Source of the DNA: a virus
Taxonomy: Duplodnaviria; Caudoviricetes
IMG/VR virus record: IMGVR_UViG_2974764813_000001
Coordinates: 1-64,000 of that record
Length of the DNA stretch: 64,000 bases
Direction: 5' to 3' (one strand)
This document shows positions 14,947 through 53,764 of this stretch, piece after piece (positions within the stretch are counted from its first letter, which is position 1; each line of letters begins with the position of its first letter). The translations under genes and the position numbers were made by a program. Under the pieces are notes generated by a model that saw nothing but the letters and a program-made list of their open reading frames with translations, searched no databases and was not told the DNA's origin.

Positions 14947-14955
14947 CCCAGACCA

Positions 14956-14994
14956 GGGAGGGCCGGAGCAGAGGGGAACTGCTTCGGCCCTCCC
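14956..14994 (+). terminator. Strong hairpin (terminator or processing site; no U-tract)
   Basis: GGGAGGGCCGGAGCAG / CTGCTTCGGCCCTCCC stem. Confidence 0.5.
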
Positions 14995-15029
14995 GACCTC
15001 TCTCCACCCATCACAACCAGGAGGTCCAC

Positions 15030-15431: not shown

Positions 15432-15462
15432 TCTCGGACCTGAGAAAGGGGCACGGAGCACC

Positions 15463-16152: not shown

Positions 16153-16153
16153 C

Positions 16154-16396
16154 ATGGTCATCTGCGGTGACGATCCCGAGCAGCTGCGCTGCGACATCTG
16201 CAACAACAGCCGGGCCCTCACGGCGACCGCCCAGCTCTACACACTCGCGGTGCGCGGCCCGAAGCACACCTACGTCAAGCGCATCTGCGAGGAGTGCGTG
16301 CCCCTGTTCAACACCACGCACTGGCCCAAGCTGCGCAAGCTGCTGCGCACGCTGCGCCCGACGCGCTACGGGATCACTCACCGGAAGGGGGCCTGA
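16154..16396 (+). CDS. Small zinc-finger protein
   Basis: CDIC...CEEC; GGAGG SD. Confidence 0.5.
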   Translation: MVICGDDPEQLRCDICNNSRALTATAQLYTLAVRGPKHTYVKRICEECVPLFNTTHWPKLRKLLRTLRPTRYGITHRKGA

Positions 16397-16782
16397 TGGC
16401 CGCCATCATCAACGGCAAGGCCGTGGTCACCGCGGCAGAACTGCCGATGCTGCACGAGCTGGCGCAGGTCCAGGAGCTCAACCCCTGGGAGGCCGGAGTG
16501 CAGCGGCTCACCGGCATCCCGGTGCTGCTGGCCGAGGAGTTCCCAGCCCAGCTGGACTGCGGCGACAACTGGTTCGCCACCGTCATCGACGGCGAGATCC
16601 ACGCCTGGAACACCGATGAGCTCAAGGCGGCGATGGAGCGCGTCCAGCAGGAGTCGCGCCAGCGTCCGCTCTCGCTTGACGTCCCTTCGAGCGGCCTGTT
16701 CCAACAGCGCACGGCAGCGTGGGAGTGGGCTTACCAGCCGCACACCCTGTCCGGACTGTTCTCACGAAATCGCAGGCCGTAG
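16396..16782 (+). CDS. Hypothetical protein
   Basis: TGATG coupling. Confidence 0.5.
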   Translation: MAAIINGKAVVTAAELPMLHELAQVQELNPWEAGVQRLTGIPVLLAEEFPAQLDCGDNWFATVIDGEIHAWNTDELKAAMERVQQESRQRPLSLDVPSSGLFQQRTAAWEWAYQPHTLSGLFSRNRRP

Positions 16783-16835
16783 CGCCTACCCTGTCGAACC
16801 ACGTTGGCCTCCCACCAAAAGGTAGGAGGCCAACA

Positions 16836-17456
16836 ATGTTTCGTACTGCTGCACCTGGGCGCGAGCGTTCTGCCAACAGCTTCACTGCGGCGATGACCGC
16901 GTGGCGCGAATCCTCGGACTCATGGTTCGACGGCACCGTCGGCTCGGTGGACCACCGGCTGCAGCGGTGCGCCAAGCTGCTCGGCGCCGCCAACGGCGCC
17001 ATGGCGAACACACCCTTTGCCGATGCCGGACAGTATCTGGCCGCCCTCCAAGAACTGTCAGCAGACCGCCAGGCCATCGCAAGTCTGCGCGATGATCTGC
17101 TGACTGGCAGCTCCGGCCGGGAGGCTGTCGGTGTCTCCCGCTCTCCCGGCCGGACTGCCGCCAAGACCGCCGCAATCAAACTCGCCAGCTCGGAGAAGCG
17201 CTGGGTCGAGCTCGAGGGCGACCGGTTCTTCACCGCCAACCGCGACGCGGCCCACGATCACGAGGAGCTCTCCGAGCGCGCTCGCCATCACGCCGAGCGG
17301 CACACCTCCGCGCTCGGCATGCAGCGCTCGGCCGTCGTCACCCAGGCCTTCATCGACAAGGTCGTCGGCCTCGGCCGCGCCACCCCCAAGCCTCGGCTCG
17401 CCGCTGCGCCCCGGCCCACCCCCGACTTCGCCCCCGAGATGTTGTTCCTGGCGTAA
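16836..17456 (+). CDS. Hypothetical late protein (possibly head-associated)
   Basis: AGGAGG SD, late-type promoter motif upstream, RTA/KTA motifs. Confidence 0.6.
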   Translation: MFRTAAPGRERSANSFTAAMTAWRESSDSWFDGTVGSVDHRLQRCAKLLGAANGAMANTPFADAGQYLAALQELSADRQAIASLRDDLLTGSSGREAVGVSRSPGRTAAKTAAIKLASSEKRWVELEGDRFFTANRDAAHDHEELSERARHHAERHTSALGMQRSAVVTQAFIDKVVGLGRATPKPRLAAAPRPTPDFAPEMLFLA

Positions 17457-17486
17457 CACGAAAACGCCTGGCCGAGAGGACAAGCA

Positions 17487-17789
17487 ATGGCAACACCCGA
17501 AGCATGGGCACTCGGCAAGCTGGACGGCCGCAACGCCGACAGCGGAGCGGTTGAACCGCACCGGCCGGTGCAGCTGTACCGCAAGGTCACCGACAGCGGG
17601 CAGCGCACGACTGCTCGCACCGGCGGCCCCAAGCCCGGACAGCCCTGGAACACCCCGTCGGCGCTCGACGAGCTCACCGTCCTGGCCGAGGACCTCAGCG
17701 TCGTCTACGTCGACCCCTCCGGCAAGGAATGGACCTTGTCGGACATGGTCATCGAACTGTTCAAGGCACACCAAGCCAAGACGTCATGA
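17487..17789 (+). CDS. Hypothetical protein
   Basis: GAGG SD; ATGA overlap with lysin B. Confidence 0.6.
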   Translation: MATPEAWALGKLDGRNADSGAVEPHRPVQLYRKVTDSGQRTTARTGGPKPGQPWNTPSALDELTVLAEDLSVVYVDPSGKEWTLSDMVIELFKAHQAKTS

Positions 17790-18934
17790 GCACCCCGCTG
17801 CGCTGGCCGGTGTCCATGCACGACTTCAACCGCAAGCTCGACGGGTATCCCGTCTTCCGCATTGCGGCCGTGAAGAATCCCGGCACCTGGTCGGCTCCCG
17901 ACGTCGGGCTACAGGCCGACATCGCCCACATGCTCGACCACCGCGTCTTCGCCGAGCTGGACAACTTCTACAACCCAGGCTTCGGCCCGGTGCTCAGCCC
18001 TACCGACGGCCCGTCCTACATCGAGACGGTGCATGAGGGCGTCGAGAACGCCGTGCGGTTCCTGAGCGACCTTGACGCCCAGTACGTTCTGATCGGCCAC
18101 AGCAAGGGCGCCCAGGTGTCCTACGAGATCGCCCGCGAGCACGAGCCCGGCGGCCGTCTGGCCCACCGTGAACGAGATCTGCTCTCCATCGTCAACTGTG
18201 GCGACCCGTGCCGCTTCGACGGCACCGTCAACACCGGCCACAAGCCGCCTGGGGGAGGCATCGCCCGGCGGCGCCCGCTGATCCCTACGCTGGCCAATCG
18301 CTACATCAGCCTGGCCCTCGACGACGACATGTACTGCACGGCCGACGCCGAGAAGGACTACCTCTGGATCGGATACGCCGCGCTGGCAGGCGATTACGAC
18401 CGCCCCGGCTCGGGCCTGCAGCTGCACGACCTCGGCGCCCTGGCCACCACCATGCTCCAGCTCATCCAGCGCGATGAGTTCGTCGATGCGCTCGCCGAGC
18501 TGCTGCCCATCGACTACCCCGGCTTGTCCACGGCGGTCAGTGAGCTGACCGGCAAGGACGGCATGAAGCTACTGGAGAATCGTGAAACCGTGCACGGCGG
18601 CCTGCTCGGAGCTCTGCTCGGGGGTGGGGCCATCACCGCGTCCCCGTTCGGCCTCTTCACTGCCGGAGCCGGATTCCTCGGCGGCCTCATCTCTGGCATC
18701 CCCACCATTGGCCCTCTCGCCGGTGGTCTGCTCTCCGGGGTTCTCGGCTCCGGCACAGGGGGTACAGCAAAAGGATGGACCAAAATGGGCAGGACCGTTG
18801 CGAAGCTTTTGGCGTTCGCGGCGAGCAACGACCATGGCCGCTACGGCGACCCCACACGCGCTGTGTTCCAAGGCAAGACCGGCGTCCAGTGGGCGGCCGA
18901 CTACCTCAACGCTCGCGGAAAGCAGCTGGTGTGA
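17786..18934 (+). CDS. lysB: Lysin B-like serine esterase/cutinase
   Basis: IGHSKGA nucleophile elbow, GDP.R, GGI, DDMYC, C-terminal H..Y; next to membrane genes. Confidence 0.75.
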   Translation: MSTPLRWPVSMHDFNRKLDGYPVFRIAAVKNPGTWSAPDVGLQADIAHMLDHRVFAELDNFYNPGFGPVLSPTDGPSYIETVHEGVENAVRFLSDLDAQYVLIGHSKGAQVSYEIAREHEPGGRLAHRERDLLSIVNCGDPCRFDGTVNTGHKPPGGGIARRRPLIPTLANRYISLALDDDMYCTADAEKDYLWIGYAALAGDYDRPGSGLQLHDLGALATTMLQLIQRDEFVDALAELLPIDYPGLSTAVSELTGKDGMKLLENRETVHGGLLGALLGGGAITASPFGLFTAGAGFLGGLISGIPTIGPLAGGLLSGVLGSGTGGTAKGWTKMGRTVAKLLAFAASNDHGRYGDPTRAVFQGKTGVQWAADYLNARGKQLV

Positions 18935-18947
18935 GGCGGTGGTGAGC

Positions 18948-19493
18948 GTGAACGCACCCTGGAACCGGGAGACCGAGTACGAGGATCCGCGCGACGCCAT
19001 CATCCGGCGTAACGGCTGGGCGCTGTCCTGGCTCGCAACCATTTTCGGAATTACGATCATCGCCTGCCACATCGAGAGCGGCAAGGCGCGCTGGTCGTCC
19101 TCGGTGTGGGAGTACGCGCTGCAGGTGCCGGGATCTCCGGCCACCTGGGGATTTGTCATTCTCGCCTCGGGCCTGATGCTGCTTTACGGTAACCGAGACC
19201 CGCACCGGCAACGCATTCGCAATATCGGTTATTGGATTGGCTTTTGGTGGTTCTGTGCGCTGGACGCCACGGCAATGCTGTCGCTTATCGACGATCTCGT
19301 CGATGCCGATCCGCTGAATATCGCCAATCCTCTTGCCGTCATTTCGTGGACCTATGTCGCCTATATCTATCGCGAGCGGGTCGACCTGTCGAAGTCGCAC
19401 GCCGAACCGATTGCTAAACGTCTGTTGGTCAATACGACAGAGGCGGTACGGAAAATGAGCATTCGAGCGGGACGAGGATTTCGTTATGGGTGA
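18948..19493 (+). CDS. Membrane protein (holin-like; start uncertain)
   Basis: About four hydrophobic segments; follows lysin B. Confidence 0.6.
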   Translation: MNAPWNRETEYEDPRDAIIRRNGWALSWLATIFGITIIACHIESGKARWSSSVWEYALQVPGSPATWGFVILASGLMLLYGNRDPHRQRIRNIGYWIGFWWFCALDATAMLSLIDDLVDADPLNIANPLAVISWTYVAYIYRERVDLSKSHAEPIAKRLLVNTTEAVRKMSIRAGRGFRYG

Positions 19494-19929
19494 CACGCGC
19501 CGTAGATCGTCCAGGCACGTTACCCATGTGACAATTATGTTGGCTCTGGCGATTATCGCCTTCGAGCAGCTCGTGATCGGACCGAAAGGGTCAGTGGTGG
19601 TGTTGGCCATGCCCGAGCCAGTGCAGCGGCTGTTTGCCTGCACGTTGCTCGCCGGGTCGGTCTCCGCGCTGCTGTCAGCGGTGTGGGTCGAGTTCCCCAC
19701 CGACCGGCGCTCCTGGTTGCCGCCCGCGGCGTTCCTTGATCTCGGCGGCATGATCGGCTGTACCACGGCGCTGTTCGTCTACTCGTTCAACCTGCGCGAC
19801 ACCGTGCAGTTCTGGAGCACCAGCCTGGGTGTGGTGCTGTCGTTCCTCGGGGTGGCCTGCGGGGTGCGGGCCTACCAAGCCTTCCGGTTCATCCGCCGAA
19901 ACTTCCACTTGATGAAGCGGGTGAAATGA
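19486..19929 (+). CDS. Membrane protein (holin-like)
   Basis: About four TM segments; basic C-terminus. Confidence 0.6.
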   Translation: MGDTRRRSSRHVTHVTIMLALAIIAFEQLVIGPKGSVVVLAMPEPVQRLFACTLLAGSVSALLSAVWVEFPTDRRSWLPPAAFLDLGGMIGCTTALFVYSFNLRDTVQFWSTSLGVVLSFLGVACGVRAYQAFRFIRRNFHLMKRVK

Positions 19930-20315
19930 ACTGGGAGCTGGTGCTGACTTCCACCGCTATCGCCACGGTGCTCTCCACCGTCGTGGCGGGGTGGTTCGCC
20001 CGTCCCAAGCAGAAGTCGGAGGCGCGCAAGTTCGACACCGACGCCGATCTTGCCGTCACCGATCTCAACGTCCGGCACGCCCGTGAAGAGGCCGACCGCG
20101 CCCAGGCAGCTCGCGAGGAGGCCGAGCGCTCCCGCAACGCCTGCCGCCAGAGCCTGGTGCGCTCCCTGGACCTCTCAGACGTGATTCTGGACGCCTTTGA
20201 GCGCATGATTGCAGTGCTGCGGGCCGGGCGACTGCCCACCCCCGACGAGATCGACGAGATCGTCTCGGAGACAATCGTGCCCACTCGGCGCACGGTGCGT
20301 GAGCTCCGGCCGTAG
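19926..20315 (+). CDS. Single-TM coiled-coil lysis-cassette protein
   Basis: N-terminal TM followed by a coiled coil. Confidence 0.55.
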   Translation: MNWELVLTSTAIATVLSTVVAGWFARPKQKSEARKFDTDADLAVTDLNVRHAREEADRAQAAREEAERSRNACRQSLVRSLDLSDVILDAFERMIAVLRAGRLPTPDEIDEIVSETIVPTRRTVRELRP

Positions 20316-20473
20316 CAACCATCACGATCACCGGCCGTAGGGCCGGAACCCCCGACTGACGGCGTCAGTGAGTTTCACTGTTTCCCCACTTCGACTCACT
20401 CTCATTCATTGCCACTCATTGTCTTTCATGGATGTGTTTTCGCAGGTAAACCTGCATTTCGGGCTCCAGGATA

Positions 20474-20499
20474 AGGGTTTCGAATCCCCTTAGCTCCAC
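20474..20499 (+). mobile_element. attP: attP core matching the 3' end of an actinobacterial tRNA-Ala
   Basis: AGGGTTTCGAATCCCCTTAGCTCCAC resembles a tRNA-Ala T-arm plus acceptor 3' strand; directly upstream of the integrase; GTCAGT repeats nearby may be arm sites. Confidence 0.8.
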
Positions 20500-20587
20500 A
20501 GGAAAACCGCAGGTCAGAGGGTTTTCGAAAGGCCCGAGGGGCCGCCGTCAGTCCACGGTCAGTGGAAAACGGTGGTAATGTCCCCTC

Positions 20588-21727
20588 GTGGCCTTCGTTC
20601 GCACGCGCTACCGCAAAGACGGATCACCGTACTTTTCGGTCGTGTTCAAGCTCTCTGACGGGACCGAGACTTCGGACTCGTACAACGATCTCCCCAGCGC
20701 CGAGAAGACCAAGATGCTCGTTGATGCGGTCGGCGGCGACAAGGCACTGGAGATCCTCGGGATCCCGCACCCCAGCGAGCGCCGCAAGGGCGCCAGGGGC
20801 GCGGGCCCCACCGTCGCCGAGTGGGTCGAGCACTACATCGACCACCTCACCGGTATCGACAAGGGCACCATCACCAAGTACCGGGCCTACCTCAAGAACG
20901 ACATCACCCCGATTCTGGGCGAGATCCCACTCACCGAGCTGTCGCGCGATCACCTGTCGCGCTGGGTGCAGTGGATGGAGAAGGAGGGTGCGCTCAACCG
21001 TGACGGCTCGCGCCGTCCGGCCAAGCCCAAGACCATCGCCAACAAGCACGGCTTCCTGTCCGGCGTGCTGGACGCCGCGGTGCCCAAGCACATCCCGGCC
21101 AATCCCGCCGAGGACCGGCGGCTGCCGAAGGACACCGCGCGCGACGCCGACGAGGAGATGGTCTTCCTCACCCGCAACGAATTTGCTCGACTGCTCGATA
21201 GCGTCACTGAGTACTGGCGTCCACTGGTGGAGTTCCTGGTGGCGTCGGGTTGCCGCTGGGGTGAGGCATCGGCGCTTCGCCCCGAGGATGTCAACCGCAC
21301 CGAGGGGACGGTGCGTATTCGCCGCGCCTGGACGTACAGTCCCGGCGGGGAGAAGTACCGCTTGGTGAAAACCAAGGGAAAGAGCAAACGCACCATTAAT
21401 GTGCCACGCTCTGTATTAACCAAACTGAATTATAATCATGAATGGGTATTTGTGAATCGCGCCGGGGGACCGGTCCGCAATCATGGTTTTCATCGGCGCG
21501 TGTGGGTGCCAGCGGTGAAAAAGGCTGATCTTGACGTTAGCCCGCGAATTCATGACCTCCGGCACACCTGTGCCTCCTGGCTAATTTCGGCGGGTGTGCC
21601 GCTGCCGGTCATCCAGAGACACCTTGGGCACCAGTCAATTAAGACCACCATCGACGTCTACGGACATCTGGATCGAACCTCGTTCGCGGTGGCCGCAGAT
21701 GTGATAGAGGGCGTGCTAGGCGCCTGA
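20588..21727 (+). CDS. int: Tyrosine integrase
   Basis: SGCRWGEA, HDLRHT, LGHQS..TT.D.YGH catalytic residues. Confidence 0.95.
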   Translation: MAFVRTRYRKDGSPYFSVVFKLSDGTETSDSYNDLPSAEKTKMLVDAVGGDKALEILGIPHPSERRKGARGAGPTVAEWVEHYIDHLTGIDKGTITKYRAYLKNDITPILGEIPLTELSRDHLSRWVQWMEKEGALNRDGSRRPAKPKTIANKHGFLSGVLDAAVPKHIPANPAEDRRLPKDTARDADEEMVFLTRNEFARLLDSVTEYWRPLVEFLVASGCRWGEASALRPEDVNRTEGTVRIRRAWTYSPGGEKYRLVKTKGKSKRTINVPRSVLTKLNYNHEWVFVNRAGGPVRNHGFHRRVWVPAVKKADLDVSPRIHDLRHTCASWLISAGVPLPVIQRHLGHQSIKTTIDVYGHLDRTSFAVAADVIEGVLGA

Positions 21728-21867
21728 TTTTGCAACTGCAAACATGTGATTAAGCCGGTCTAAGTACTGCTTGACGCGGAAACAAATTTCCGGTGTTATG
21801 TCAAGAGCAACACGCCTTCCGCAAAGGACGTGTTGCTGCTCTATCTCTTCGATCTCGTATTTCTTGT

Positions 21868-22644
21868 GTGAATGGATCTCGCGTGACCCGTGTCCTCTTT
21901 ATTAACGCCTGCGTCGTCATTTTGTGCTGGGCCTTGTGGGCCCGTCGCGCGACGTGGGCGAACCGCTGGCAGGTGCCGACGACGTTGAGCATGGCGCTGC
22001 TGGCGACCTCGGTGCTGATGCTGGACGAGCGTATGTCCGAGTGGCTCGGGCAACCGCTACACGCGATCACCGGCTACTGGAACGTCGAGGACCTCCTGGG
22101 GCACCTGTTGTTCCTCGGCGCCGCGGGCTGCCTGGTGGTCTCAGTGCTGATGCGCCTGGGCGACGACGACTCGATCCAGGGGGCGGCCCGCCAGTTCCTG
22201 GAGCGTCCGGCGGCAGTGGTGCTCGCGGCAATGCTGTGGACGTTCTGCGCGAGCCAGTGCAGCAATGAGTACATCCCGGACTTCTTGCAGGCGCCTGTGG
22301 ATGTGTGGCTGGTGGCCTACCGGCTGATCGTGGGGCTGGCGCTGGTCTACCAGTTCGGCCTGGCGATGGTGGCACTGCTCGTTTTACGCCAGGACACCGA
22401 GCACAAGATGGTTGCCACCGCCTACCTGGTGGTGTGCGCCGCCGGAACACTCTCGGCGCTGCTCTACAGCATCGCCGCAATGATCCCCGGCGCAGGCGAG
22501 CGCATCGCAACTCTGGAGTGGGCGCTGACAGCTCTGTTCGGGGTGGGCTTCGTGGTGGCCAACTCAGCGAAGGCCATCACCGCTATCCGAGCGGTGGGGC
22601 GTCTTTACGCACCTTCATCTTGGAAATCCTTGTCTCGGCGGTAG
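21868..22644 (+). CDS. Multi-pass membrane protein (start uncertain), convergent with and overlapping the repressor
   Basis: About seven hydrophobic segments; lies between int and the repressor. Confidence 0.65.
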   Translation: MNGSRVTRVLFINACVVILCWALWARRATWANRWQVPTTLSMALLATSVLMLDERMSEWLGQPLHAITGYWNVEDLLGHLLFLGAAGCLVVSVLMRLGDDDSIQGAARQFLERPAAVVLAAMLWTFCASQCSNEYIPDFLQAPVDVWLVAYRLIVGLALVYQFGLAMVALLVLRQDTEHKMVATAYLVVCAAGTLSALLYSIAAMIPGAGERIATLEWALTALFGVGFVVANSAKAITAIRAVGRLYAPSSWKSLSRR

Positions 22645-22957
22645 TCGCCGCAGGGGCGGCGGTCTTCGTGGCCGTCGCCAGGGGACTGGGCGCAGTGCGT
22701 AGTCGCCCCGCCTCGTCGACCTCGGCGACCTCTAGGTAACCGAACTCCACCTGTAGCCATCTCGGGTTGATCCCGAAATGGCGGCCTATCTGATCGAGCT
22801 CTTCGTAGGTCGGGAAGTCCGCGGCATCCTTGCGGCGTGAGTACGTCGCTGGGGGCTTGTTGAGCGCGCCCGCGATCTCCGCGTCCACTATGTCGCGGTC
22901 CAGCACCCACTCCAGGACCCGCTTGAGGCCCCGGCCTTCCCTGCTGTTTTTGGGCAT
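22583..22957 (-). CDS. Immunity repressor (XRE-type HTH)
   Basis: DAEIAGALNKPPATYSRR...FPTYEELD.I...FGINP..L HTH; divergent from the Cro-like gene. Confidence 0.7.
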   Translation of the reverse strand: MPKNSREGRGLKRVLEWVLDRDIVDAEIAGALNKPPATYSRRKDAADFPTYEELDQIGRHFGINPRWLQVEFGYLEVAEVDEAGRLRTAPSPLATATKTAAPAATTAETRISKMKVRKDAPPLG

Positions 22958-22971
22958 GCGCTCAATGGTAC

Positions 22972-23072
22972 TTCCGTTTTCGGAAACGCGGCAACCCTAT
23001 GTGAACTGGGCCATTGACTTCGGAAGTTGATCCGACACGCCCATAAGTGGGACTTAACTTCCAAAAATGGAA
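22972..23072. promoter_or_regulatory. Genetic switch with palindromic operators TTCCG-TTTT-CGGAA (22972-85) and TTCCA-AAAA-TGGAA (23059-72)
   Basis: Two perfect 5-4-5 palindromes in the repressor/cro intergenic gap. Confidence 0.7.
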
Positions 23073-23094
23073 GCCCGCTGCTAGTGTTGCAAGC

Positions 23095-23388
23095 ATGTCA
23101 GCGAGCTCATTGGAGCTGCACTGGATTCCCGAGTCGGTCTCAAACCTTATGCGCGCCAACGGCGTTCGGGATCGTGCAGATTTAGCAAAGAAGAACATCG
23201 GCATCGGCCAGACGACCATCTACCGGTCGTTCGATGAGCGGTGGGGCGGGAAAGTTCAGGCGAATATGCTGCATGCACTGGCTGTCTGGACCCAGATTCC
23301 GTTATCACAACTGGTGCTTCAGATCGTCGTCGATCCGACGGCAGTGCTCGACGGCAAGCCCCGCGCAAAGCGCCGGAGCGAATCATGA
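23095..23388 (+). CDS. Cro-like HTH protein
   Basis: RADLAKKNIGIGQTTIYR HTH; divergent from the repressor. Confidence 0.6.
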   Translation: MSASSLELHWIPESVSNLMRANGVRDRADLAKKNIGIGQTTIYRSFDERWGGKVQANMLHALAVWTQIPLSQLVLQIVVDPTAVLDGKPRAKRRSES

Positions 23389-23648
23389 GTCCACTTACGT
23401 ACAGCCTCACCGAGGTCGCCCAAGCCATCTGCGGTGACGATCTGGGCGATCCCGAAGCCTGGGTGAAGCGCAAGATCCTCGACGGCACGTTCGGCGCCAT
23501 CAAGGTCGGCCGCTCCTACCGGATGACCCACGACCAGTTCATGGCGGCGCTGGCCACCCTGGAGGTCCGCGTCACCCCGAGGCAGGCCCCGGCCACCACC
23601 GGACTCACCGCGTCCTCGGCGCGGCGCCGCCGGAAGCTGCAGTCGTGA
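23385..23648 (+). CDS. xis: Excisionase / MerR-like HTH protein
   Basis: YSLTEVA...W....I.DG..GAIKVGRSYRMT pattern; downstream of cro. Confidence 0.7.
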   Translation: MSPLTYSLTEVAQAICGDDLGDPEAWVKRKILDGTFGAIKVGRSYRMTHDQFMAALATLEVRVTPRQAPATTGLTASSARRRRKLQS

Positions 23649-38599: not shown

Positions 38600-41500
38600 G
38601 TGAAACGTATTATCACCCACCGCGAGCAGGCCGAGGCGATGCAGTGGTGGCAGCAGGGCGCCATCATGCGCACCGCTGCCAGGGACTACTCGAAGATGAC
38701 CCTCTTGCAGGCCATCAACGAGGACGGCGTCCCCGACCTCTGGCTCGACGCCCATCCCGAATGGGTCGAGCTGATCAAGATGCCGGGAAACAAGGCGTTC
38801 TGGAAGCAGGAGCTCAGCCAAAACGGCGACTGGGACCTGGTCCAGGACTACCTGGAGATCAAGGCCGAAGACGGCGACCAGAACGCCTTCGACGTCCTCG
38901 ACGACCACCGCAAAAACAGCCTGATCGGCCAAGGCGCGGTGCCGATGAACTGGCACTCCGGTGACGACGACGACTACGAACTGGATCCCGGCGACGTCGA
39001 TTTCGACGACGACTTCGAGGAGCACCCGGAGCCCGACGAGTCCTCCGTGGGCTCGCTGCTGCCCGACATCTCCGGCATGAGCCTGCGGGAGTTGCTGGAC
39101 TCCGGTGTCAACAGCGCCTCTGTCCACGAGTGGCTCGACAAGCACCCCAACATCAATGCCGTGCTCAAGGACCCCAGCGATCCGGCGCACCAGATCATCC
39201 TCGACGAGGTCGGCAAGAAGCTCGCTCCGCACCTGGACCCCTCCGACTACCCGGAAGTGCACCAGGCCGTCGGCACCGACACGAAGGGTGTCCCCAGCCA
39301 CGAAGACATGCAGCAGCTCGCTGAGGGGCTCTACGGCGGCCCGCACGGCGACCACAGCGACATCATCAACGCCTGGAAGCAGTGGAGTCCCCAGGACTGG
39401 AAGGACAACCTCGAGGTCGCGGCCACCGGTCAGGCCGGACCGCACTGGAAGGCGCTGGCCGACAAGATGCTCGGCGACAACAAGACGCTGGGCCAGAAGC
39501 TCTCCGACGTGTTCGGCGGCCAGGGCATCAATGCCGAGGCGTTCGACTCCATGTCGCCCGAAGGGCAGAAGAACATGCTCGCCGAGTACCTGGGCAGCGC
39601 CACCGGCGAGAACGAGCACCCCGACGTCAAAAAGCTCTTCGACGAGCACTTCGGCGACCCCAAGGGCCACCCCCTCAAGCCCCAGAGCGACGAGGAGTGG
39701 AACGACTTCATGCAGACGATGTTCCCCGGCCTGGGCGAGGGTGCGCTGCAGAACAGCCTCAACAGCTGGAAGTCGCTGAGCGATAAGCAGTGGGAGGACA
39801 TCGCCGACGGCACCCACCCCGCGGGCTCCGGCGTGGGATTCAAGAACTGGAAGAAGCTCAAGGACTACCCGGACAAGCCCTCCACGGGGCTCAACGACGC
39901 CGTCGACGAACTGCTCAACGAACTGTCCGGCGACCCGTGGAACAGCGACGTCAAGCCCAGCACGCCCAGTAAGCCCACCAACCCGTGGGACAACCCGCCC
40001 AAGTCTGGCGACTCCCAGAGCGTGCTCGCCCCGATCAAGTCTCCGGGAGGCAAACCCCTCTACGGCGAGCCTGGCCCGTCCTTCGGTGTCAGCTACAACC
40101 CCGGTGACCGTCAGAGCCGCCCGATGAGTCTGGACTCGCCGATGTTCAACGAGGACAACCGGCCGATGATGCCCGACGGCCGCTGGTACTTCTCGCCCAG
40201 CGACCACAACCCGCTGTCGCAGAGCGATGCGCGCCCCGAGGTCCGCTGGGACCGCAACGACTTCGAGGAAGACGACGTGCTGCCGGGCATGCCGACCGAG
40301 AACCGGTCGGTGAAGCTCTACCGCGGCGAGCCGATCAACCTCGATCACCCCGGCGCCGCGCACATCAAGAAGATGCTCTACGGCGAGACGCCCGACCCCG
40401 ACACCCCGATGCTGCCGGGCACGGAGCAGCTGATGGGCGCCCCGGCCTACGGCAAGGGCTCACCGCGCGAAGGACTGCCCGACGCGGACTGGGCCACCAA
40501 GTACCTGCACCAGACGGTCCCCGGCCTCAACAAGGACGAGGAGTTCTGGACCGACGACCTGATCAAGGACCTGCCCGACGACAACCCGGTGGTCCAGGCG
40601 TGGCGCCGCGGCCACGACGCCGACAGCGACCCGTTCCGCAACCCCGAGCTGGGCAAGGCGCTGCTCGACCACTGGGAGAAGACCCGCGGCAAGGACTACC
40701 CCGGCCCCGATCTGCAGGGCCTGGGACGGCACTGGACGCTCGATCCCGGCCTGGCCAGCAACTTCGGCGGCGCCAACAGCCGCTACGTCCTGCCGACGCG
40801 GTTCGTCTCGGAGTGGGACGGCAGCGGTGAGGACCCGTACCGCTCCAACACCGGCGGCGACTACCCGCACGAGAAGGAGATCACCAAGATCCCCGGCTCG
40901 CCCATGAAGATCGTCGATGTCCAGGTCAAGCACCCCGACACCTACGAATGGGTCTCGGCCTGGCCCAAGGGGCACACCGAGACCCGCTACTCGTCGCGCG
41001 GCGGGATCACCGGCCACCGCGAACAGGCCGAGGCGCTCGCGCAGCTGGAGTACCTCTACCGCACCGGGGCGTTGTCCGACAGCGAGTACTACGCACGGGT
41101 GCGCCAGGTGATGGACCAGGTGGACAACGCCCGCCGGTCGGGCCAGACCACCAACAAGCTGCACGCCGGTCCGATGGCGGGCTACTCGCTGCCGCGCTAC
41201 ATCCAGCAGCAGCAGCTGCTCAACGACGCCTGGAAGGAGCTGGGGGAGAACGTGCCCCGCAACCGCCACGGGCTGATCGTCGGCGGGCTGCCCGGCTCGG
41301 GCAAATCCACCGTGCTCGACAACCACGCCGAGATCGAAGGCGTCGGCCCGGTCAAGGGCAACTTCCTGCGCATCGACCCGGACTACTTCAAGGAGCAGAT
41401 GGGCAAGCGGGGGATGACCCCGCAGATCGAGGGGCTCTCACCGCTGGAGACCGCGGCGCTGATCCACGACGAGTCCACCGACCTGGCCCACCGGCTGGCC

Positions 41501-41866
41501 CACCGCGCCTACCAGGAGGGCACCAACGTCGCCTGGGACGGCACGCTGCGGTATCCGGGCACCGACAAGATCGAGGACTTCAAGAAGCACGGGTACACCC
41601 CGCACGGCATCTTCGTCGACCTGCCGCTGGACGCCTCGGTGCAACGGGCCCAGGAGCGTTACCGTCGGGGGCATGAGGGGTATGTCGCCGGGACCAACCC
41701 GCTCGGCGGCCGCCTGGTGCCCGAGGACTACATCCGCAGCAGCGCCAGCCCGCAGCCGGGGTTCAACTCGATCAACCGCAAGAACTTCGAGGACATGCGC
41801 GCGCACTTCGCCACTCCGGCACAGGTCTGGGACAGCACGGACCTGCCCCCGCGGCGACTTGAGTAA
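38600..41866 (+). CDS. Multidomain effector: leader, internal repeats, ART-like domain, second leader, zeta-toxin-like P-loop kinase
   Basis: KLYRG...RHWT...EKEI (ART-like, about 40300-40990); GGLPGSGKST, RIDPDYFK, NVAWDGT, R..GGRLVP (zeta-like, about 41000-41866). Confidence 0.75.
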   Translation: MKRIITHREQAEAMQWWQQGAIMRTAARDYSKMTLLQAINEDGVPDLWLDAHPEWVELIKMPGNKAFWKQELSQNGDWDLVQDYLEIKAEDGDQNAFDVLDDHRKNSLIGQGAVPMNWHSGDDDDYELDPGDVDFDDDFEEHPEPDESSVGSLLPDISGMSLRELLDSGVNSASVHEWLDKHPNINAVLKDPSDPAHQIILDEVGKKLAPHLDPSDYPEVHQAVGTDTKGVPSHEDMQQLAEGLYGGPHGDHSDIINAWKQWSPQDWKDNLEVAATGQAGPHWKALADKMLGDNKTLGQKLSDVFGGQGINAEAFDSMSPEGQKNMLAEYLGSATGENEHPDVKKLFDEHFGDPKGHPLKPQSDEEWNDFMQTMFPGLGEGALQNSLNSWKSLSDKQWEDIADGTHPAGSGVGFKNWKKLKDYPDKPSTGLNDAVDELLNELSGDPWNSDVKPSTPSKPTNPWDNPPKSGDSQSVLAPIKSPGGKPLYGEPGPSFGVSYNPGDRQSRPMSLDSPMFNEDNRPMMPDGRWYFSPSDHNPLSQSDARPEVRWDRNDFEEDDVLPGMPTENRSVKLYRGEPINLDHPGAAHIKKMLYGETPDPDTPMLPGTEQLMGAPAYGKGSPREGLPDADWATKYLHQTVPGLNKDEEFWTDDLIKDLPDDNPVVQAWRRGHDADSDPFRNPELGKALLDHWEKTRGKDYPGPDLQGLGRHWTLDPGLASNFGGANSRYVLPTRFVSEWDGSGEDPYRSNTGGDYPHEKEITKIPGSPMKIVDVQVKHPDTYEWVSAWPKGHTETRYSSRGGITGHREQAEALAQLEYLYRTGALSDSEYYARVRQVMDQVDNARRSGQTTNKLHAGPMAGYSLPRYIQQQQLLNDAWKELGENVPRNRHGLIVGGLPGSGKSTVLDNHAEIEGVGPVKGNFLRIDPDYFKEQMGKRGMTPQIEGLSPLETAALIHDESTDLAHRLAHRAYQEGTNVAWDGTLRYPGTDKIEDFKKHGYTPHGIFVDLPLDASVQRAQERYRRGHEGYVAGTNPLGGRLVPEDYIRSSASPQPGFNSINRKNFEDMRAHFATPAQVWDSTDLPPRRLE

Positions 41867-44886: not shown

Positions 44887-46491
44887 GTGGCTACTGCCTG
44901 GCCGGATGGCTATGACGACTTCGGCGTACCTTCCCTGCCGGAAGAGACACCTCTGTCCTCTGCGGGGGACAGTGCCCGCAACCACCCCGAACTGCTGCGC
45001 GACGTCGGCGATGCCGTCGAGGCCCTGCAGCGCGGTGTGGCGCGCAAGATTCACGATCACTCCGGTGACCCTGACGACATCGCCAAGGGCGACAAGCTCA
45101 AGCAGGCCAACACCCACGAGGACGCCGACACCGACTCCTCACCCACGGCGCTGCACCACACCCTGGGCTTCGGTGCGCACCAGGCCATGCCGGGCAACCA
45201 CGTGCCCAACTACGCCGACCTGCCGGGCGCGCCGTTCCGTATCTGCACCTCCACCACCCGGCCCGGAGCACCGTTCCGCGGCCAGGTGATCTACGAGACC
45301 GACACCAAGTGCTTCCGGCAGTGGGAGCTGTTCAACAACAACGCGGTGATCACCGGGCTCAACTCGCAGATCAACTTCGATACCGTCGATGCCACTACCA
45401 TCGGTGGCGGCGGCTGGGACATCACCATCGCCAGCGGGGACACCACCCACGGCATCCCGGCCACCCCCGACGGCACGCTGCGCTGGATCGACGGCGGCAA
45501 CCAGACCAACCGCTTCTGGGCGCGACGCACCAACCCGCTGGACGCGGAGACCGAGACCGACGACCAGATCATCACCTGGAAGACCGGCGACACCGTCATC
45601 GAATCGGAACTGCCGCTGACCGACGGCGCCACCAACGACGTCTACTTCCGGGTCAGCGAGGACGAGCAGAGCTACATCAAGCTGCGCGTCGGCGACCAGT
45701 ACATCAAGGCGTTCTACACGACCTCCGGCCGGGAGAACGAGAAGGCTCTCGGCGAGCTGTCCAACATCGAGACCCAGTTGTCCAACGCGACGTGGTCCGG
45801 CGAGATGACCGACCGCACCCTCTCGCTGTACTGCGGCGGGGAGTTCATGGGCTCGATCAAGGACACCAAGGCCGTCACCGCCAAAGGCGCCGACAACCGC
45901 GGCTGGATGATCGGCATGCAGGCCGGTGCCCGCGGCCTGGGCCAGACCACCCCGGCCAACATCGACTGGGTCCGCATCCAGGACCGGCGCTACTTCACCT
46001 CGGTCAACCGCTGGAGCCTGCTGCCGCTGGGCCGTGTCCCGGTGTGCCGCCTGCGCCAGTCCAAGAACCAGCAGCTCATGCGCACCGGCACCATCCTGGA
46101 GTTCGCCGAGGAGGTCGAGGACACCTTCGGCTTCTTCGACAAGGCGGTGTCGCAGACCGACGTCGTGATCACCGAGCCCGGCACCTACGACATCACCGCG
46201 ACGCTGCAGTGGGATCCGCAGAGGGTGCCCGACCAGGCCCACGCGCTGGTCATGGTCAACGGCCAGGAGACCGAGATCAAGGACTCGAAGTTCCTGCGCG
46301 GCAACGGTGCGCAGCCGGGCTTCTCCCAGACCCTGGCGATCACCGGCACCCTGCCTCTGGTGGCCGGTGACGTCATCCAGGTCAAGGCCCGCTTCGAGGC
46401 GTCCGGCGGCCTGCTCAACCAGATCTTCTCCTACTTCGACGCCGCGTCGAAGGTCAACTCTCGTCTCGAGATCACATTCCGGGGGCCGTGA
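44887..46491 (+). CDS. Minor tail/fiber protein (lectin-like and C1q-like domains)
   Basis: HHTLG...QAMPGNH, CTSTTRP..PF.GQ.IYETDT fiber motifs; beta-rich C-terminus. Confidence 0.65.
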   Translation: MATAWPDGYDDFGVPSLPEETPLSSAGDSARNHPELLRDVGDAVEALQRGVARKIHDHSGDPDDIAKGDKLKQANTHEDADTDSSPTALHHTLGFGAHQAMPGNHVPNYADLPGAPFRICTSTTRPGAPFRGQVIYETDTKCFRQWELFNNNAVITGLNSQINFDTVDATTIGGGGWDITIASGDTTHGIPATPDGTLRWIDGGNQTNRFWARRTNPLDAETETDDQIITWKTGDTVIESELPLTDGATNDVYFRVSEDEQSYIKLRVGDQYIKAFYTTSGRENEKALGELSNIETQLSNATWSGEMTDRTLSLYCGGEFMGSIKDTKAVTAKGADNRGWMIGMQAGARGLGQTTPANIDWVRIQDRRYFTSVNRWSLLPLGRVPVCRLRQSKNQQLMRTGTILEFAEEVEDTFGFFDKAVSQTDVVITEPGTYDITATLQWDPQRVPDQAHALVMVNGQETEIKDSKFLRGNGAQPGFSQTLAITGTLPLVAGDVIQVKARFEASGGLLNQIFSYFDAASKVNSRLEITFRGP

Positions 46492-47483
46492 TGACCAGCG
46501 AACCGTCGGGCATCATGATTAGCAGCCCGAAGATCCGCGACCAGGCACTGGTGCGCAAGTTCGTCTCCCAGGGCGGCCGCGGCTACATCGCCTTGGACAT
46601 CCGCACCCCCGAGGGGTCGGTGGACCCCGACGAGGGCAGCCTGCAGCTCAAGGTGTGGTTCAACGACGTCACCGCCCAGGTCCCGGTCTCCGATGACCCG
46701 CGCGGCGTGCTGGCGCTGGAGGTGTCCCACGACGAACTGCACCGCGAGGACACCGGCAAGTACGACTACGAGATCGGTCCCGCCCTGACCAGCCAGCGCG
46801 GGGTGTTCACCGTCGAGTGGCTCTACAAGGTCGGCGGCACCGAGTTCAGCTTCACCGACCACCTGCAGGTGCTCAGCCAGATGCCGCTGTACGACACTCT
46901 CTCGACGGCCGAGCGGCTCACCGTCGAGCAGGTGTCCTGGATGCTCGGCGATCTGTTTGACTCCACCGAGGGCGGCCCGTATCTCATCGAGCAGTTCCAG
47001 ACCCACTTCGACTACGAGCGCATCGCCCAGCTCGCCCAGATCGCCGTCACCCGGCTCAACACCACCGGCTTCCCGGTGACCTACTGGGCCTTCGGCGGCG
47101 ACGGCGGCGGCAACGTGGTGCCCAAGGAGTTCGCCGGGCTGCACGTACTGGCCACCTACTACGAGGTGGTGCGCCACCTGATCCGCTCGTACGTGGAGAT
47201 CCCCGCGCGCGTCGGCGCCAACATCACCTTCCTGGACCGTCGCGACTACATGCAGCGCTGGCAGTCCATCCTGGCCACCGAACTGCCGGAGTGGCAGAAG
47301 ATGGTCAAGACCGCCAAGCGCTCGCTGCTCGGCCTGGGCCGCGGCGCGCTGCTGGTCTCCGGCGGCATCTACGGCAGCGGCGCGACCGGTGTCTTCCAGT
47401 ACGGCATGTACGTCAGCCACACCCGCGCGTTCCGGTTCTATCCGGCGGCCCCGGCCGTGTCCTGGGGGTCGATTGGGCGATGA
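46488..47483 (+). CDS. Head-to-tail adaptor
   Basis: Position; D.FDS..GGP.L and DRRDY..RW motifs. Confidence 0.6.
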   Translation: MMTSEPSGIMISSPKIRDQALVRKFVSQGGRGYIALDIRTPEGSVDPDEGSLQLKVWFNDVTAQVPVSDDPRGVLALEVSHDELHREDTGKYDYEIGPALTSQRGVFTVEWLYKVGGTEFSFTDHLQVLSQMPLYDTLSTAERLTVEQVSWMLGDLFDSTEGGPYLIEQFQTHFDYERIAQLAQIAVTRLNTTGFPVTYWAFGGDGGGNVVPKEFAGLHVLATYYEVVRHLIRSYVEIPARVGANITFLDRRDYMQRWQSILATELPEWQKMVKTAKRSLLGLGRGALLVSGGIYGSGATGVFQYGMYVSHTRAFRFYPAAPAVSWGSIGR

Positions 47484-48109
47484 GCGTCGCGATCCTCAAG
47501 CAGGCACAGCAGTTCTCGTGGCGAACCTCATCGTTCCTCTGGGATGACCCGCGCGGCTACCTCGCGGCCAAGGAGTGGCTCGACAACGGCTTCGCATACC
47601 ACGCCGACGACTTCCGCGCGGGCGGGGAGAGTGCGCGCCAGGGCAGCCCGCACCCGTGGCCGGAGGGCTTCAACGAGGCCCGGCTGCTGCGCACCCCTGA
47701 TGGCCGCCGCGCCATCGGTTCGGAGATCTACCAGCGGCTCACCCAGGCGCAGCCGACGAAGTACGAGCTGTGGCGCGGGGTCACCGGCGACCTGCCCTAC
47801 ACCGAGGGCCAGACCGTCAGCATGCCGCTGTCGTCGTTCGCCATCGACAAGGCCAAGGCCAGCGAGTTCGCCCGCGAGACGCCGAAGGACACCGGCGGCT
47901 ACCTGCTGCGCATGAGCCCCGGATCGCAGTCCTACAAGCTCATCAACCACGACAACCCCGGCGAACTGCGCGGCTGGGATCCCGCAGGCGAGCACATCTC
48001 CATGGGCGACTTCCGGGTGAACCGCATCCACCAGCCCCGCAACCCCGGCGACCTGCCCATCGCCGACATCACCCACCTGGGCCTGGGCGCACCGGAGGTG
48101 AGGCCATGA
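47480..48109 (+). CDS. Leader plus ADP-ribosyltransferase-like domain (R-S-E type)
   Basis: ELWRG, MPLSSFA, GEHISMGDFRV; N-terminal MSVAILKQAQQFSWRTS. Confidence 0.6.
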   Translation: MSVAILKQAQQFSWRTSSFLWDDPRGYLAAKEWLDNGFAYHADDFRAGGESARQGSPHPWPEGFNEARLLRTPDGRRAIGSEIYQRLTQAQPTKYELWRGVTGDLPYTEGQTVSMPLSSFAIDKAKASEFARETPKDTGGYLLRMSPGSQSYKLINHDNPGELRGWDPAGEHISMGDFRVNRIHQPRNPGDLPIADITHLGLGAPEVRP

Positions 48110-48486
48110 CCGCGATCCTCAAGCAAGCCGAGCAGTATTCCTGGCGGGTGGCGATGCCTTGGTATCACGTCAGTCCTCATGATCTCCCTGATGCCACCAG
48201 GCTGACTCCTGGTGGAGGGGAGTCAGCTTTTGGCGACGAGGTTTACCAGGATGAATTCAGCGATCATCCGAATCACGTTTGGATGTGGAATGACCTAAAC
48301 AGCGCCGTTCGGTTCCTGCCTGAGATCGGCGCCGAGAAGCGTCCTAACGGTGACTGGGAGCATGGCCACGTCTACGAGGTGGATCCAGAAGACCCCAGGC
48401 CTTGGTACAGCGGCCAGCACGGTTACGTGACTCCATCTGCGAAGATCATTCGTCAAGTCCCACAAGGCGAATGGGGGCAGCAGTGA
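48106..48486 (+). CDS. Leader plus Arr-like ADP-ribosyltransferase-fold domain
   Basis: WYHVS...L.PG, HVWM, GHVYEVDP; N-terminal MTAILKQAEQYSWRVA; atypical codon usage after the leader. Confidence 0.55.
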   Translation: MTAILKQAEQYSWRVAMPWYHVSPHDLPDATRLTPGGGESAFGDEVYQDEFSDHPNHVWMWNDLNSAVRFLPEIGAEKRPNGDWEHGHVYEVDPEDPRPWYSGQHGYVTPSAKIIRQVPQGEWGQQ

Positions 48487-49397
48487 GCATCAAGCTGCCC
48501 GAAGACTTCGGCGTCAACCAGCTGCGCAAGGACGTTCGCGACTCCTTGCAGACCGCGGGGGAGCAGTGCATCGTGCTGGCGATGCGCCACCCTGTCGACG
48601 ACGACGACGCCGAGAAGTGCCCGGTCTGCGACGACGACATCTACAACGACGGCGAGGCCGACTGCGAGGTCTGCTACGGCACCCGCTACGCCCACCCGGT
48701 GCGCGAGGCCGCCAAGGTGTGGGCGGTGTTCTCCGACCAGACGAACGACGAGACCTACACCAAGCAGGGCGTGTTCCAGTCCGACGTGCGTGAGATCCAG
48801 ACCGAGGCGTTCCCGCGGCTGATGGAGCACGACTACGTCGTGCGCGTGCGCCGCTGGACCCCCGACGGCCGCGCCGCCGAGATCGAAGGCTTCTACACCG
48901 TCGACAAGGTCATCCCGAACTCGGTGCGCACCGGCAACCGCTTCGGCCAGGCCAGCTGGGACATCGTCGGCCAGAAGGCCACCGTGCGCGAGGTTCCGCG
49001 CACCTCGCTGGCGATCACGAAGTACCCGGTGCTGGGCAAGACCTTCAACGCGGGCCTGATCGAGCCGGTCGGCACCATGGCCACCCCGGCACCGGCACCG
49101 CCGGACACCAAGGTCGTCTACGTCCCGGTCATCTCGCCCGGCGCGAGCACCCCCGACCCAGACGACTCGCCCCCGCTGGTGCAGATGCCGCCCGGCACCT
49201 ACTGGCGGCGGGTGTTCTTCCACACCCAGAGCGCTCCCGCGGCCACCTGGACCATCGTGCACCCCTTCGACTACGACCCCTCGGTCACGCTCTTCGTCGG
49301 CGGCGAAGAAGCCGACACCGACGTCGAGTACCCCAACGACCACACCGTGGTGCTGACCTTCGCCGAACCCCAGGCCGGTGTCGCACAGCTCATCTGA
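48483..49397 (+). CDS. Head completion/stopper protein
   Basis: CPVC...CEVCYGT motif typical of myophage neck proteins; WTIVH C-terminal repeat. Confidence 0.6.
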   Translation: MSIKLPEDFGVNQLRKDVRDSLQTAGEQCIVLAMRHPVDDDDAEKCPVCDDDIYNDGEADCEVCYGTRYAHPVREAAKVWAVFSDQTNDETYTKQGVFQSDVREIQTEAFPRLMEHDYVVRVRRWTPDGRAAEIEGFYTVDKVIPNSVRTGNRFGQASWDIVGQKATVREVPRTSLAITKYPVLGKTFNAGLIEPVGTMATPAPAPPDTKVVYVPVISPGASTPDPDDSPPLVQMPPGTYWRRVFFHTQSAPAATWTIVHPFDYDPSVTLFVGGEEADTDVEYPNDHTVVLTFAEPQAGVAQLI

Positions 49398-49436
49398 GCC
49401 CAGAAGTAGTAGGGGAGCCAAACCGAGGAGGCTGAC

Positions 49437-50219
49437 GTGGCTCGCAAGATTTTCAACGGGCTCGACCTGCAGAACCAGCGGATCGAGGCGGTGGCCAGCC
49501 CGGCATCGCCGACCGACGCCGCCAACAAGTCCTACGTCGACAACCTGGTCAAGGGCCAGGTATGGAAGGTCGGCGTGCGCGTGGCCTCCACCACCAACGT
49601 CGACATCCTGGCTCCGGGCACCGTCATCGACGGCATCACCCTGGCCAACGGCGACTCGATCCTGCTGAAGAACCAGTCCAGCGAGACCGACAACGGCATC
49701 TACGTCTACACCTCGGCCTCGGCTGCCCTGACCCGTCGCGACGACGCCAACAGTGCCGACACCCTGGTACCCAACACCACGGTGTACGTGGCCGAAGGCG
49801 ACACCAACGCTGACACGGCCTGGACGCTGACCACCGACGCCCCGATCACCGTCGGCACCACCAACCTGACCTTCGCCCAGTCCGGCGGCGTCGCCCCCTA
49901 CACCGCGGGCGACGGCCTGGACCTCAACGGCATGGAGTTCAGCGTCAAGTCGGGCACCGGCATCATCGTCGGCGACGAGGTGAGCATCGACACCACCATC
50001 GTCGCACGCAAGTACGCCACCAACATCGGCGACGGCACCACGACCAGCATCGTGGTCACCCACAGCCTGGGCAGCCGCGACGTCGCGGTATCGGTGCGCG
50101 ACGCCACCACCCACGAAGAGGTCTATCCCGACGTCGAGATGACCACGCCGGACACAGTCACCCTCAAATTCGCTGTGGCGCCCGCCTCCAACGAACTGCG
50201 CGCAGTCGTCGTCGGGTAA
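49437..50219 (+). CDS. Structural/fiber protein
   Basis: DAANKSYVD, WK..VRVA, IDG..L..GD.ILLKNQ...NGIY. Confidence 0.7.
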   Translation: MARKIFNGLDLQNQRIEAVASPASPTDAANKSYVDNLVKGQVWKVGVRVASTTNVDILAPGTVIDGITLANGDSILLKNQSSETDNGIYVYTSASAALTRRDDANSADTLVPNTTVYVAEGDTNADTAWTLTTDAPITVGTTNLTFAQSGGVAPYTAGDGLDLNGMEFSVKSGTGIIVGDEVSIDTTIVARKYATNIGDGTTTSIVVTHSLGSRDVAVSVRDATTHEEVYPDVEMTTPDTVTLKFAVAPASNELRAVVVG

Positions 50220-53590: not shown

Positions 53591-53764
53591 ATGGCACCAC
53601 GCATTGCTCGGCAGGCAGAGACCTTCGGCCTGCACGAGGTCGAGGAGGCCCGCCAGCGGACCGCGGCGAGCATCGCGGACCCGGCCGAGATCGCTGACCT
53701 GCTCAAGGGTCCGCGCATCCAGGCCGGGCTTCTGCAGGTGCGCGACGAAGGGGACATCGAGTGA
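53591..53764 (+). CDS. Small hypothetical protein
   Basis: AAGGAG SD. Confidence 0.5.
   Translation: MAPRIARQAETFGLHEVEEARQRTAASIADPAEIADLLKGPRIQAGLLQVRDEGDIE

Follow-up and report, generated by a model that had tools for sequence, protein, structure and literature searches.

We analysed two small genes, A (47480-48109, 209 aa) and B (48106-48486, 126 aa), in a 64,000-nucleotide stretch of viral DNA, hereafter the window, which is the first 64 kb of the 136-kb IMG/VR virus record IMGVR_UViG_2974764813_000001. The phage is distantly related to the Ceeclamvirinae (Bxz1/Phabba-like mycobacteriophage myoviruses). Each gene begins with a short leader followed by a domain that we call the cargo, and the pair lies within a late structural operon, between two conserved genes that border a variable slot. 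An initial annotation had described A and B as tandem genes for ADP-ribosyltransferase (ART)-like proteins, and had proposed B as a recent capture of an ART-fold gene behind a duplicated leader. The features of the locus are listed below, with scores from hidden Markov models (HMMs) of the leader, from PHROG family profiles and from GC3, the fraction of codons ending in G or C.

46488..47483, + strand: upstream conserved gene, putatively head-tail joining, 331 aa, phrog_2791 (PHROG E 2.7e-124); left border of the variable slot
47480..47533, + strand: gene A leader (tag), residues 1-18, type 1, AILKQAQQFSWRTS (leader HMM 26.4 bits, against a reversed-control maximum of 8.6)
47534..48109, + strand: gene A cargo, an orphan domain, ART-like (R-S-E type) according to ESM Atlas only (GC3 0.93, native)
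48106..48153, + strand: gene B leader (tag), residues 1-16, AILKQAEQYSWRVA (leader HMM 33.9 bits; GC3 0.875)
48154..48486, + strand: gene B cargo, predicted Arr-like (H-Y-D-type) ART domain (AlphaFold2, Foldseek and VIA-align); encloses the low-GC3 block
48483..49397, + strand: downstream conserved gene, 304 aa, a phrog_2806 core with a C-terminal extension (PHROG E 4.3e-58); right border of the slot

As first described, both genes are coupled by 4-bp stop/start overlaps to each other and to both neighbours. These are ATGA at 47480-47483 (upstream TGA, gene A ATG), ATGA at 48106-48109 (gene A TGA, gene B ATG) and GTGA at 48483-48486 (gene B TGA, downstream GTG).

The variable slot and the leader peptide

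The slot between the phrog_2791 and phrog_2806 genes was recovered in about 30 related loci and is demonstrably hypervariable, turning over between relatives. It is empty in nine of them (12-76 nt, with the flanking genes directly coupled), holds one small gene in some and reaches 2.5 kb in the largest. Most inserts start with a leader of one of two types, type 1 (h-h-K/R-Q-A-E-Q-F/Y-x-W/Y-R-x-A) or type 2 (R-h-h-T-A-R-E-Q-x-E-x-L-x-P-W-R-T-A). The tagged cargos include a Phabba-type domain annotated as 'ParB C-terminal domain', which cluster-E phages and Rhodococcus phage E3 encode with no leader at all. Tandem tagged genes in locus L005 carry an NMNAT-like nucleotidyltransferase (CTP_transf_like) and an ART-like module with ParB_N, L010 encodes an 818-aa tagged fusion that ends in a B-like domain, and in L073 a tagged, uncharacterized 397-aa protein lies directly 5' of a close homologue of the downstream gene of the window. 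Slot genes at L011:2705-3241, L011:3238-3720 and L012:4960-5511 share another N-terminus (..HLMARFRH..), present in tandem twice in L011, that may be a third or diverged leader type.

Residues 4-17 of A and 3-16 of B are the same at 10 of 14 positions (AILKQA.Q.SWR..). The shared leader, initially given as 16-17 aa, is thus borne out as a 14-aa stretch within residues 1-18 of A and 1-16 of B. At the DNA level 30 of 42 nt are the same, and the shared part opens with an exact run of 14 nt. Eight codons differ, four of them synonymously, which points to selection on the leader peptide. The tag is predicted to form a short amphipathic helix ending in W-R-[TV]-[AS], and both AlphaFold2 and ESM Atlas place this helix beside the domain.

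The spread of the tag was measured with tag HMMs at a cut-off of 10 bits, a reversed six-frame control reaching 8.6 bits at most. There were 28 matches of at least 10 bits in the analysed loci and none in the reversed control, and all 28 lie on the operon strand, each at the start of an open reading frame (ORF) in the slot, 3' of the downstream gene or 3' of the capsid gene. A 22-aa type-2 query retrieved 213 records, exclusively of Mycobacterium and Gordonia phages, with about two matching places per record. Among the matches are genes 103 and 104 of Bxz1, which lie just 3' of the capsid gene of that phage. Further tagged proteins of cultured relatives are gp212 of Phabba, gp114 of Cane17 and gp109 of Gordonia phage CherryTomatoes. 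The tag also starts 38 of the 89 proteins that have the domain of B (maximum of the reverse control, 2.5 bits). A further tagged gene lies in the window itself:

38600..41866, + strand: 1088-aa tagged protein just after the major head gene (type-2 tag at the N-terminus, leader HMM 39.5 bits)

As this protein shows, the tag also occurs outside the neck slot; a second tag-like stretch lies ahead of its zeta-kinase part. Judged by these matches, the leader is a portable tag on the N-termini of unrelated enzymes in the late operons of Bxz1-like phages. Since the same tag occurs throughout the family, the initial view of the leader of B as a local duplication of that of A does not hold.

Some minor observations concern the tag. 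The annotated start of Bxz1 gene 104 (L070:5998-7290; MLQPWYRE...) falls inside the tag. The ORF reaches farther 5', to RRIVTAREQFEMLQPW, so that the true start probably lies upstream of the deposited one. A small ORF at 53600-53760 of the window, between the tube gene and the next gene, begins with MAPRIARQAETFG and gives a weak type-1 match (11.6 bits; control maximum 8.6). Outside the window, from G000:C1:126363 onward, a 2028-aa ORF that begins with MSRSVLTQREQFAV gives a weak tag match of 10.8 bits; it may represent a tagged giant protein encoded well away from the structural operon.

The leader might be something other than an address, namely a DNA-level element for recombination or translational coupling, or a structural part of the enzyme. 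The leader DNA is conserved across A, B and L073 while the flanks on both sides diverge, every cassette is tightly coupled to the preceding gene, and the modelled helix lies beside the domain, all of which would suit such roles. We nevertheless regard this reading as improbable, since conservation is seen at the peptide level, with synonymous differences, the hydrophobic pattern and the terminal W-R-T-A are common to both length variants, and the tag stands on unrelated folds while the same folds also occur without it. Moreover, the internal tag-like copy in the 1088-aa protein cannot serve translational coupling. The explanation that we favour below agrees with, and includes, use of the leader as a homology anchor when cassettes are exchanged.

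The cargos of genes A and B

The composition of gene B breaks sharply. B has a GC3 of 0.63, below that of A (0.92) and of seven neighbouring genes (0.92-0.95), and a two-boundary likelihood fit places a low-GC3 block at 48157-48471 (0.58 inside, 0.94 outside). The block starts at codon 18 of B, one codon after M17, and stops five codons before the stop codon of B, at the ribosome-binding site of the next gene. The probability of 66 or fewer GC-ending codons out of 110, given a rate of 0.93, is about 1e-22. In the leader of B 14 of 16 codons end in G or C, which differs from the cargo rate of 0.60 with a binomial P of 0.018. The initial annotation had seen A/T-rich third positions from about 48155, right after the leader, and a foreign-looking cargo; the change-point at 48157 agrees with it on both counts and puts the boundary at the junction of tag and cargo. 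On this sequence signature, the cargo DNA of B looks like a recent import from a source of lower GC, and relatives of about 54% GC exist (e.g. L026 and L028). Among 24 tagged genes, the leaders are at the GC3 of core genes and the cargos are usually lower, as in L010 (0.94, 0.63 and 0.86 for leader, cargo and adaptor, respectively). Such a pattern of native-like leader and lower-GC3 cargo in many relatives fits frequent turnover of cargos behind a retained tag.

The junction itself is informative with respect to where the fusion was made. The cargo of B starts with a methionine of its own right after the leader (RVA-MPWYH), as had been noted. An exhaustive HMMER search with B gave 89 related proteins, most of which align only from residue 17-18 on, many of them without leader or with a different one, so that the proposed discordance between leader and cargo is found among homologues as well. 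Leaderless homologues start 2-6 residues ahead of WYH (P0036, P0084, P0085). On the other hand, the fusion did not first appear in this genome, contrary to the initial annotation. P0009, with 44-48% identity to B, has the same junction RVAMPWYH, and a type-1 or type-2 tag stands on the domain of B in P0016, P0024, P0050 and L018, and also in P0029, P0069 and P0080. Because tag and Arr-like fusions occur elsewhere, down to the very same junction, the fusion predates this genome unless it has arisen repeatedly. A tree of 121 Arr-like domains was poorly resolved, the rows with the tag directly before the domain being scattered, and is compatible with both a single and a repeated fusion. The sequence A-M-P straight after the tag is present in 6 of 38 tagged proteins, with two different modules, against a background for MP of 0.0023 per dipeptide position; it may be either the relic start codon of a cargo or a conserved processing site or functional junction. 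The junction R-[TVI]-A-M-P recurs after the tag in P0032, P0058, P0083, P0031, P0002 and P0009, and a module starting with MPAVDAYD or MPAIDAYD is both fused behind the tag and found at the start of free-standing proteins (P0010, P0071, P0043).

These data can be read in two ways. In one of them, the leader of A was copied locally and this genome captured behind the copy an ART gene that had no leader and whose own ATG is M17. The exact 14-nt run in both leaders, the GC3 step exactly at M17/P18 and the starts of the leaderless homologues would all agree with this, and the A-M-P junctions together with the free-standing MPAVDAYD and MPAIDAYD starts give the impression that tags are fused before whole ORFs. 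However, P0009 has the identical junction, the second half of the leader of B is nearer to P0009 (E9, V15, A16, M17) than to the leader of A, and several other phage proteins join tags of either type to the same domain, which makes duplication and capture in place unlikely. It is more likely that recombination in or at the leader exchanged a cassette that already had its tag, or just the cargo of such a cassette, than that a naked gene was captured. Of the initial proposal, the modular build of leader and cargo, the ART fold and the foreign cargo DNA are thus retained, and the local duplication and the novelty of the fusion are not.

Low GC3 in B could also come from selection, for slow translation or low expression, or from mutation bias, with no recent horizontal arrival. 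The cargos of tagged genes in many relatives are also below the GC3 of core genes, and they could share a selective cause. This is quite unlikely in our view, since the edges of the block are sharp and coincide with module boundaries, gene A has native GC3 although it shares the tag, the slot and the expression setting of B, and the contents of the slot are replaced from relative to relative.

Gene B had no match in Pfam, PHROG or NCBIfam, and its fold was assigned by structure prediction. The AlphaFold2 model had a mean predicted local distance difference test score (pLDDT) of 81 with a 24-sequence alignment, and of 35 from the single sequence. The best solved match of the model in Foldseek was Arr (2HW2; E 1.5e-5, template modelling (TM) score 0.57). 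In VIA-align, entries of Arr and Arr-2 had Z values of 9.4, 8.6 and 8.5, with 96-105 residues aligned from model residue 15, and in two of these three matches the aligned core did not take in the leader; Tpt1/KptA and toxin ARTs came next, and all 50 matches listed were entries of the ART superfamily or unnamed proteins. The nearest cluster in ESM Atlas is 65% Pfam Arr-ms. A profile of the B family against PDB sequences also ranked Arr first, weakly (E 0.22), pairing WYH.SP with YLHGT and HVW with HIY. Hence H21 of B, which is invariant in the 24 family members, pairs with the His of the Arr motif YLHGT, and the position of the strand-2 Tyr of Arr is taken by W59, a Trp that is nearly invariant in the family. 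The acidic catalytic position lies beyond the aligned stretch of the profile match; E91 (YEV) is common in the family, not invariant. The models thus give good support to an Arr-like ART fold for the cargo of B, as the initial annotation had supposed. In terms of known enzymes, B shares with Arr (PDB 2HW2, 9IAF, 9IBA; PF12120) the small ART fold and the His of the first strand motif (WYH vs YLH), and differs from it in identity (about 20%), in the Trp for the strand-2 Tyr, in its N-terminal tag and in its location in a phage late operon. B is also below the Pfam threshold, as the gathering threshold of Arr-ms (PF12120), 25 bits, was not reached, and this profile found nothing over the whole genome; within the B family P0009 reached 19.9 bits, one of 24 members giving a sub-threshold match at E<=0.05. 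The B domain occurs in 128 copies in the 89 proteins, up to six per protein, and many of these are multidomain proteins of 400-4000 aa, often with GNAT domains. That B is a true rifamycin-inactivating Arr, shielding host RNA polymerase from soil rifamycins during infection, is the least probable of the alternatives, even though the solved structures nearest to it are those of Arr and Arr-2 with rifampicin bound, its ESM Atlas cluster is mostly Arr-ms and its likely hosts are soil actinobacteria, because of the low identity and sub-threshold profile scores, the closeness of Tpt1/KptA and toxin ARTs in Z, and a family whose members are mostly repeat domains within polyvalent proteins, the proposed targets of which are proteins or nucleic acids (PMC5512222).

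Another N-terminal motif, M-x-(x)-WGLWG or DLWG, was seen on about 10 proteins with Arr-like domains and may be another tag family. Its carriers include L069:3453-4085 and L069:4078-7089 (IMGVR_UViG_3300014962_000004), P0013, P0026, P0048, P0055, P0061 and P0065. The pair in L069 are adjacent genes, for a protein with an Arr-like domain and a glutaredoxin and for a 1003-aa polyvalent protein.

The cargo of gene A is an orphan. No match was found in Pfam, NCBIfam, PHROG or PDB sequences, and neither a search for homologues among longer proteins nor searches for loci in genome and viral collections found any. The profile of ADPrib_exo_Tox (PF03496) gave nothing at E<=10 over the whole genome. 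Searches of 50,697 phage records by tblastn with A and with B found no match, and in word-based homologue searches each of the two retrieved itself only. A 145-kb NCBI record also encodes A and B. ESM Atlas gave A an ART feature score of 0.93 and a predicted TM score (pTM) of 0.72 for its own model, which has TM scores of 0.59-0.67 to seven clusters annotated as ADPrib_exo_Tox or ART. Candidate R-S-E residues, placed by eye, are R98 (ELWRG), S117/S118 (PLSSF) and E171 (AGEHI), in the expected order and spacing, and an hhalign comparison of A with the Phabba-type slot domain paired the R and S regions at a non-significant probability of 0.2%. We consider an ART fold of gene A rather probable on the basis of this model. 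The initial description of both genes as ART-like therefore stands well for the fold of B and, through ESM Atlas only, moderately for A.

The proposed role of the tag

The explanation that we favour, with a probability of roughly 0.6, takes A and B as late, co-transcribed and translationally coupled effector cassettes in the hypervariable slot of a Bxz1-like (Ceeclamvirinae-related) actinophage, each of which would consist of an N-terminal tag of 14-18 aa and an enzyme domain. The cargo of A would be an orphan domain, probably an ART of the R-S-E type, and that of B an Arr-like domain of the H-Y-D type, such as is frequently found in phage polyvalent proteins. The portable tag of the lineage would be placed on many enzymes that are unrelated to each other and whose genes lie among those for head and neck, and it would most likely load these enzymes into the virion, to enter the host together with the DNA as do Alt and the internal proteins of T4. 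The cargo DNA of B probably arrived within an already tagged cassette from a relative of lower GC, by one crossover in or at the conserved leader and another just before the ribosome-binding site of the downstream gene, which would leave a native-looking leader and a foreign-looking cargo.

Virion loading is considered the likeliest role of the tag because the genes are late, coupled to virion genes, rich in enzymes (ARTs, an NAD-synthesis enzyme, a kinase) and tagged; by analogy we would put its chance at close to even. The broader claim, that the tag is a general and portable load-and-deliver signal for the virions of Bxz1-like actinophages as well as a homology anchor for cargo swaps, with B caught in the act, is more tentative, and we place it somewhat under even odds.

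Several points weigh against this explanation. Some slot inserts are untagged, namely HNH/NUMOD-like, endonuclease-looking genes in L015:2659-3204 and L022:5022-5570, and a fibre-like insert in L004:5041-7397 that comprises two small genes and a 545-aa homologue of a minor-tail-like gene, the counterpart of which lies upstream of the slot in the window. Since untagged genes occupy the slot in these three loci, position in the slot alone implies no association with the neck. The tag has no sequence similarity to the capsid targeting sequence (CTS) of T4, and our search of the literature found no virion proteomics of Bxz1-like phages (Bixzunavirus) that would speak to packaging, cleavage or injection of tagged proteins. 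The ART call for A comes from one source, ESM Atlas, and the Pfam, PDB-sequence and hhalign comparisons were negative or non-significant. With Trp in place of Tyr and the acidic residue unplaced, activity of B is not assured by its sequence. The GC3 contrast between leader and cargo has just 16 leader codons to draw on, and no donor sequence was found for the cargo of B, the best homologue being 48% identical.

Head-packaged ARTs are textbook knowledge for T4. The CTS of that phage loads internal proteins (IPI-III) and other cargo into the prohead, the ART Alt is packaged in the head, and both are ejected with the DNA (Mullaney & Black 1996; reviewed in PMC9026906). The same short N-terminal peptide was found on unrelated proteins of the present phage and of its relatives, and like the CTS it is a short N-terminal peptide (about 10-20 aa) on unrelated, fast-evolving late proteins, with ARTs among the cargos and with cargo sets that vary between phages. 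Unlike the CTS as described in PMC9026906, the tag consensus (h-h-K/T-Q/A-A/R-E-Q-F/Y...W-R-T/V-A) lacks an LxE or IxE end and shows no likeness to the CTS. The present phages are actinophage myoviruses with tagged genes among head and neck genes, and their tag is found at the front of very large polyvalent proteins as well, where it can occur again internally.

Polyvalent proteins, with their H-Y-D ART domains (Tox-ART-HYD2-like), and head-packaged ARTs have been described by Iyer et al. 2017 (PMC5512222), and myoviruses have been proposed to package ARTs and other enzymes of NAD+ and ADP-ribose metabolism in the virion (PMC9503650). The B family resembles these systems in that its domain occurs singly or in up to six copies in proteins of 400-4000 aa with GNAT and other domains, in genes beside morphogenesis genes, and in the predicted role, early host modification after delivery. 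It differs in that A and B have one domain each, whereas polyvalent proteins have two or more, and in that the link to the virion would be a short tag, with no MuF or portal fusion; this tag is not described in PMC5512222 or PMC9503650. The slot also resembles the sites of morons and homing endonucleases, where the junction of two coupled, conserved structural genes takes varied inserts, some of them HNH, which often differ in composition from the resident genes. Unlike at moron sites, most inserts here share a peptide tag and frame-tight translational coupling, and are sometimes arrayed in tandem.

ARTs near morphogenesis genes, polyvalent proteins and the CTS of T4 are thus already known. 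We did not find this tag described for Bxz1-like actinophages, and the literature that we searched describes no loading signal or injected-effector set for actinophages, including the widely isolated and studied large Bxz1-like mycobacteriophages. What this locus contributes is a clean compositional break at the junction of tag and cargo, in a slot that turns over, a combination that suggests modular exchange of cargos behind a conserved tag. If the proposed role of the tag were true, it would make the arsenal of injected mycobacteriophage enzymes readable from sequence, with effectors legible from genomes, and it would explain the clustering of NAD-related enzymes in neck and head operons. 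It could also offer a route for chosen proteins into mycobacteria by phage, as CTS fusions do in T4.

Flanking genes and genome setting

The order of the late structural operon around A and B, as assigned from PHROG, is portal (26549), head maturation protease (34080), major head protein (37226), minor-tail-like protein (44887), phrog_2791, genes A and B, and phrog_2806, followed 3' by three further virion genes and then by sheath (51526) and tube (53062). No promoter-like or terminator-like site was found in 46300-49600, and an Rfam scan gave nothing but a far sub-threshold match to AS-traI at 47342-47396. Homologues of the upstream gene have 39-66% identity in more than 60 loci, and those of the downstream gene were found in 30 loci by tblastn. 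The GTG start of the downstream gene is backed by homologues that start at the equivalent residue, and its phrog_2806 core has a CxxC...CxxC motif. A search of PDB sequences with the two proteins matched nothing useful. PHROG assigns no function to phrog_2791 or phrog_2806. They were called 'adaptor' and 'stopper' from their position, and it is this position between head and sheath genes alone that suggests a role in the neck.

With respect to composition at the scale of the genome, there are about 20 islands of 300-900 bp with a GC content below 0.60, against a genome mean of 0.67. Gene B is one of them, and others lie within 4751-23451 of the window and G000 69851-118101.

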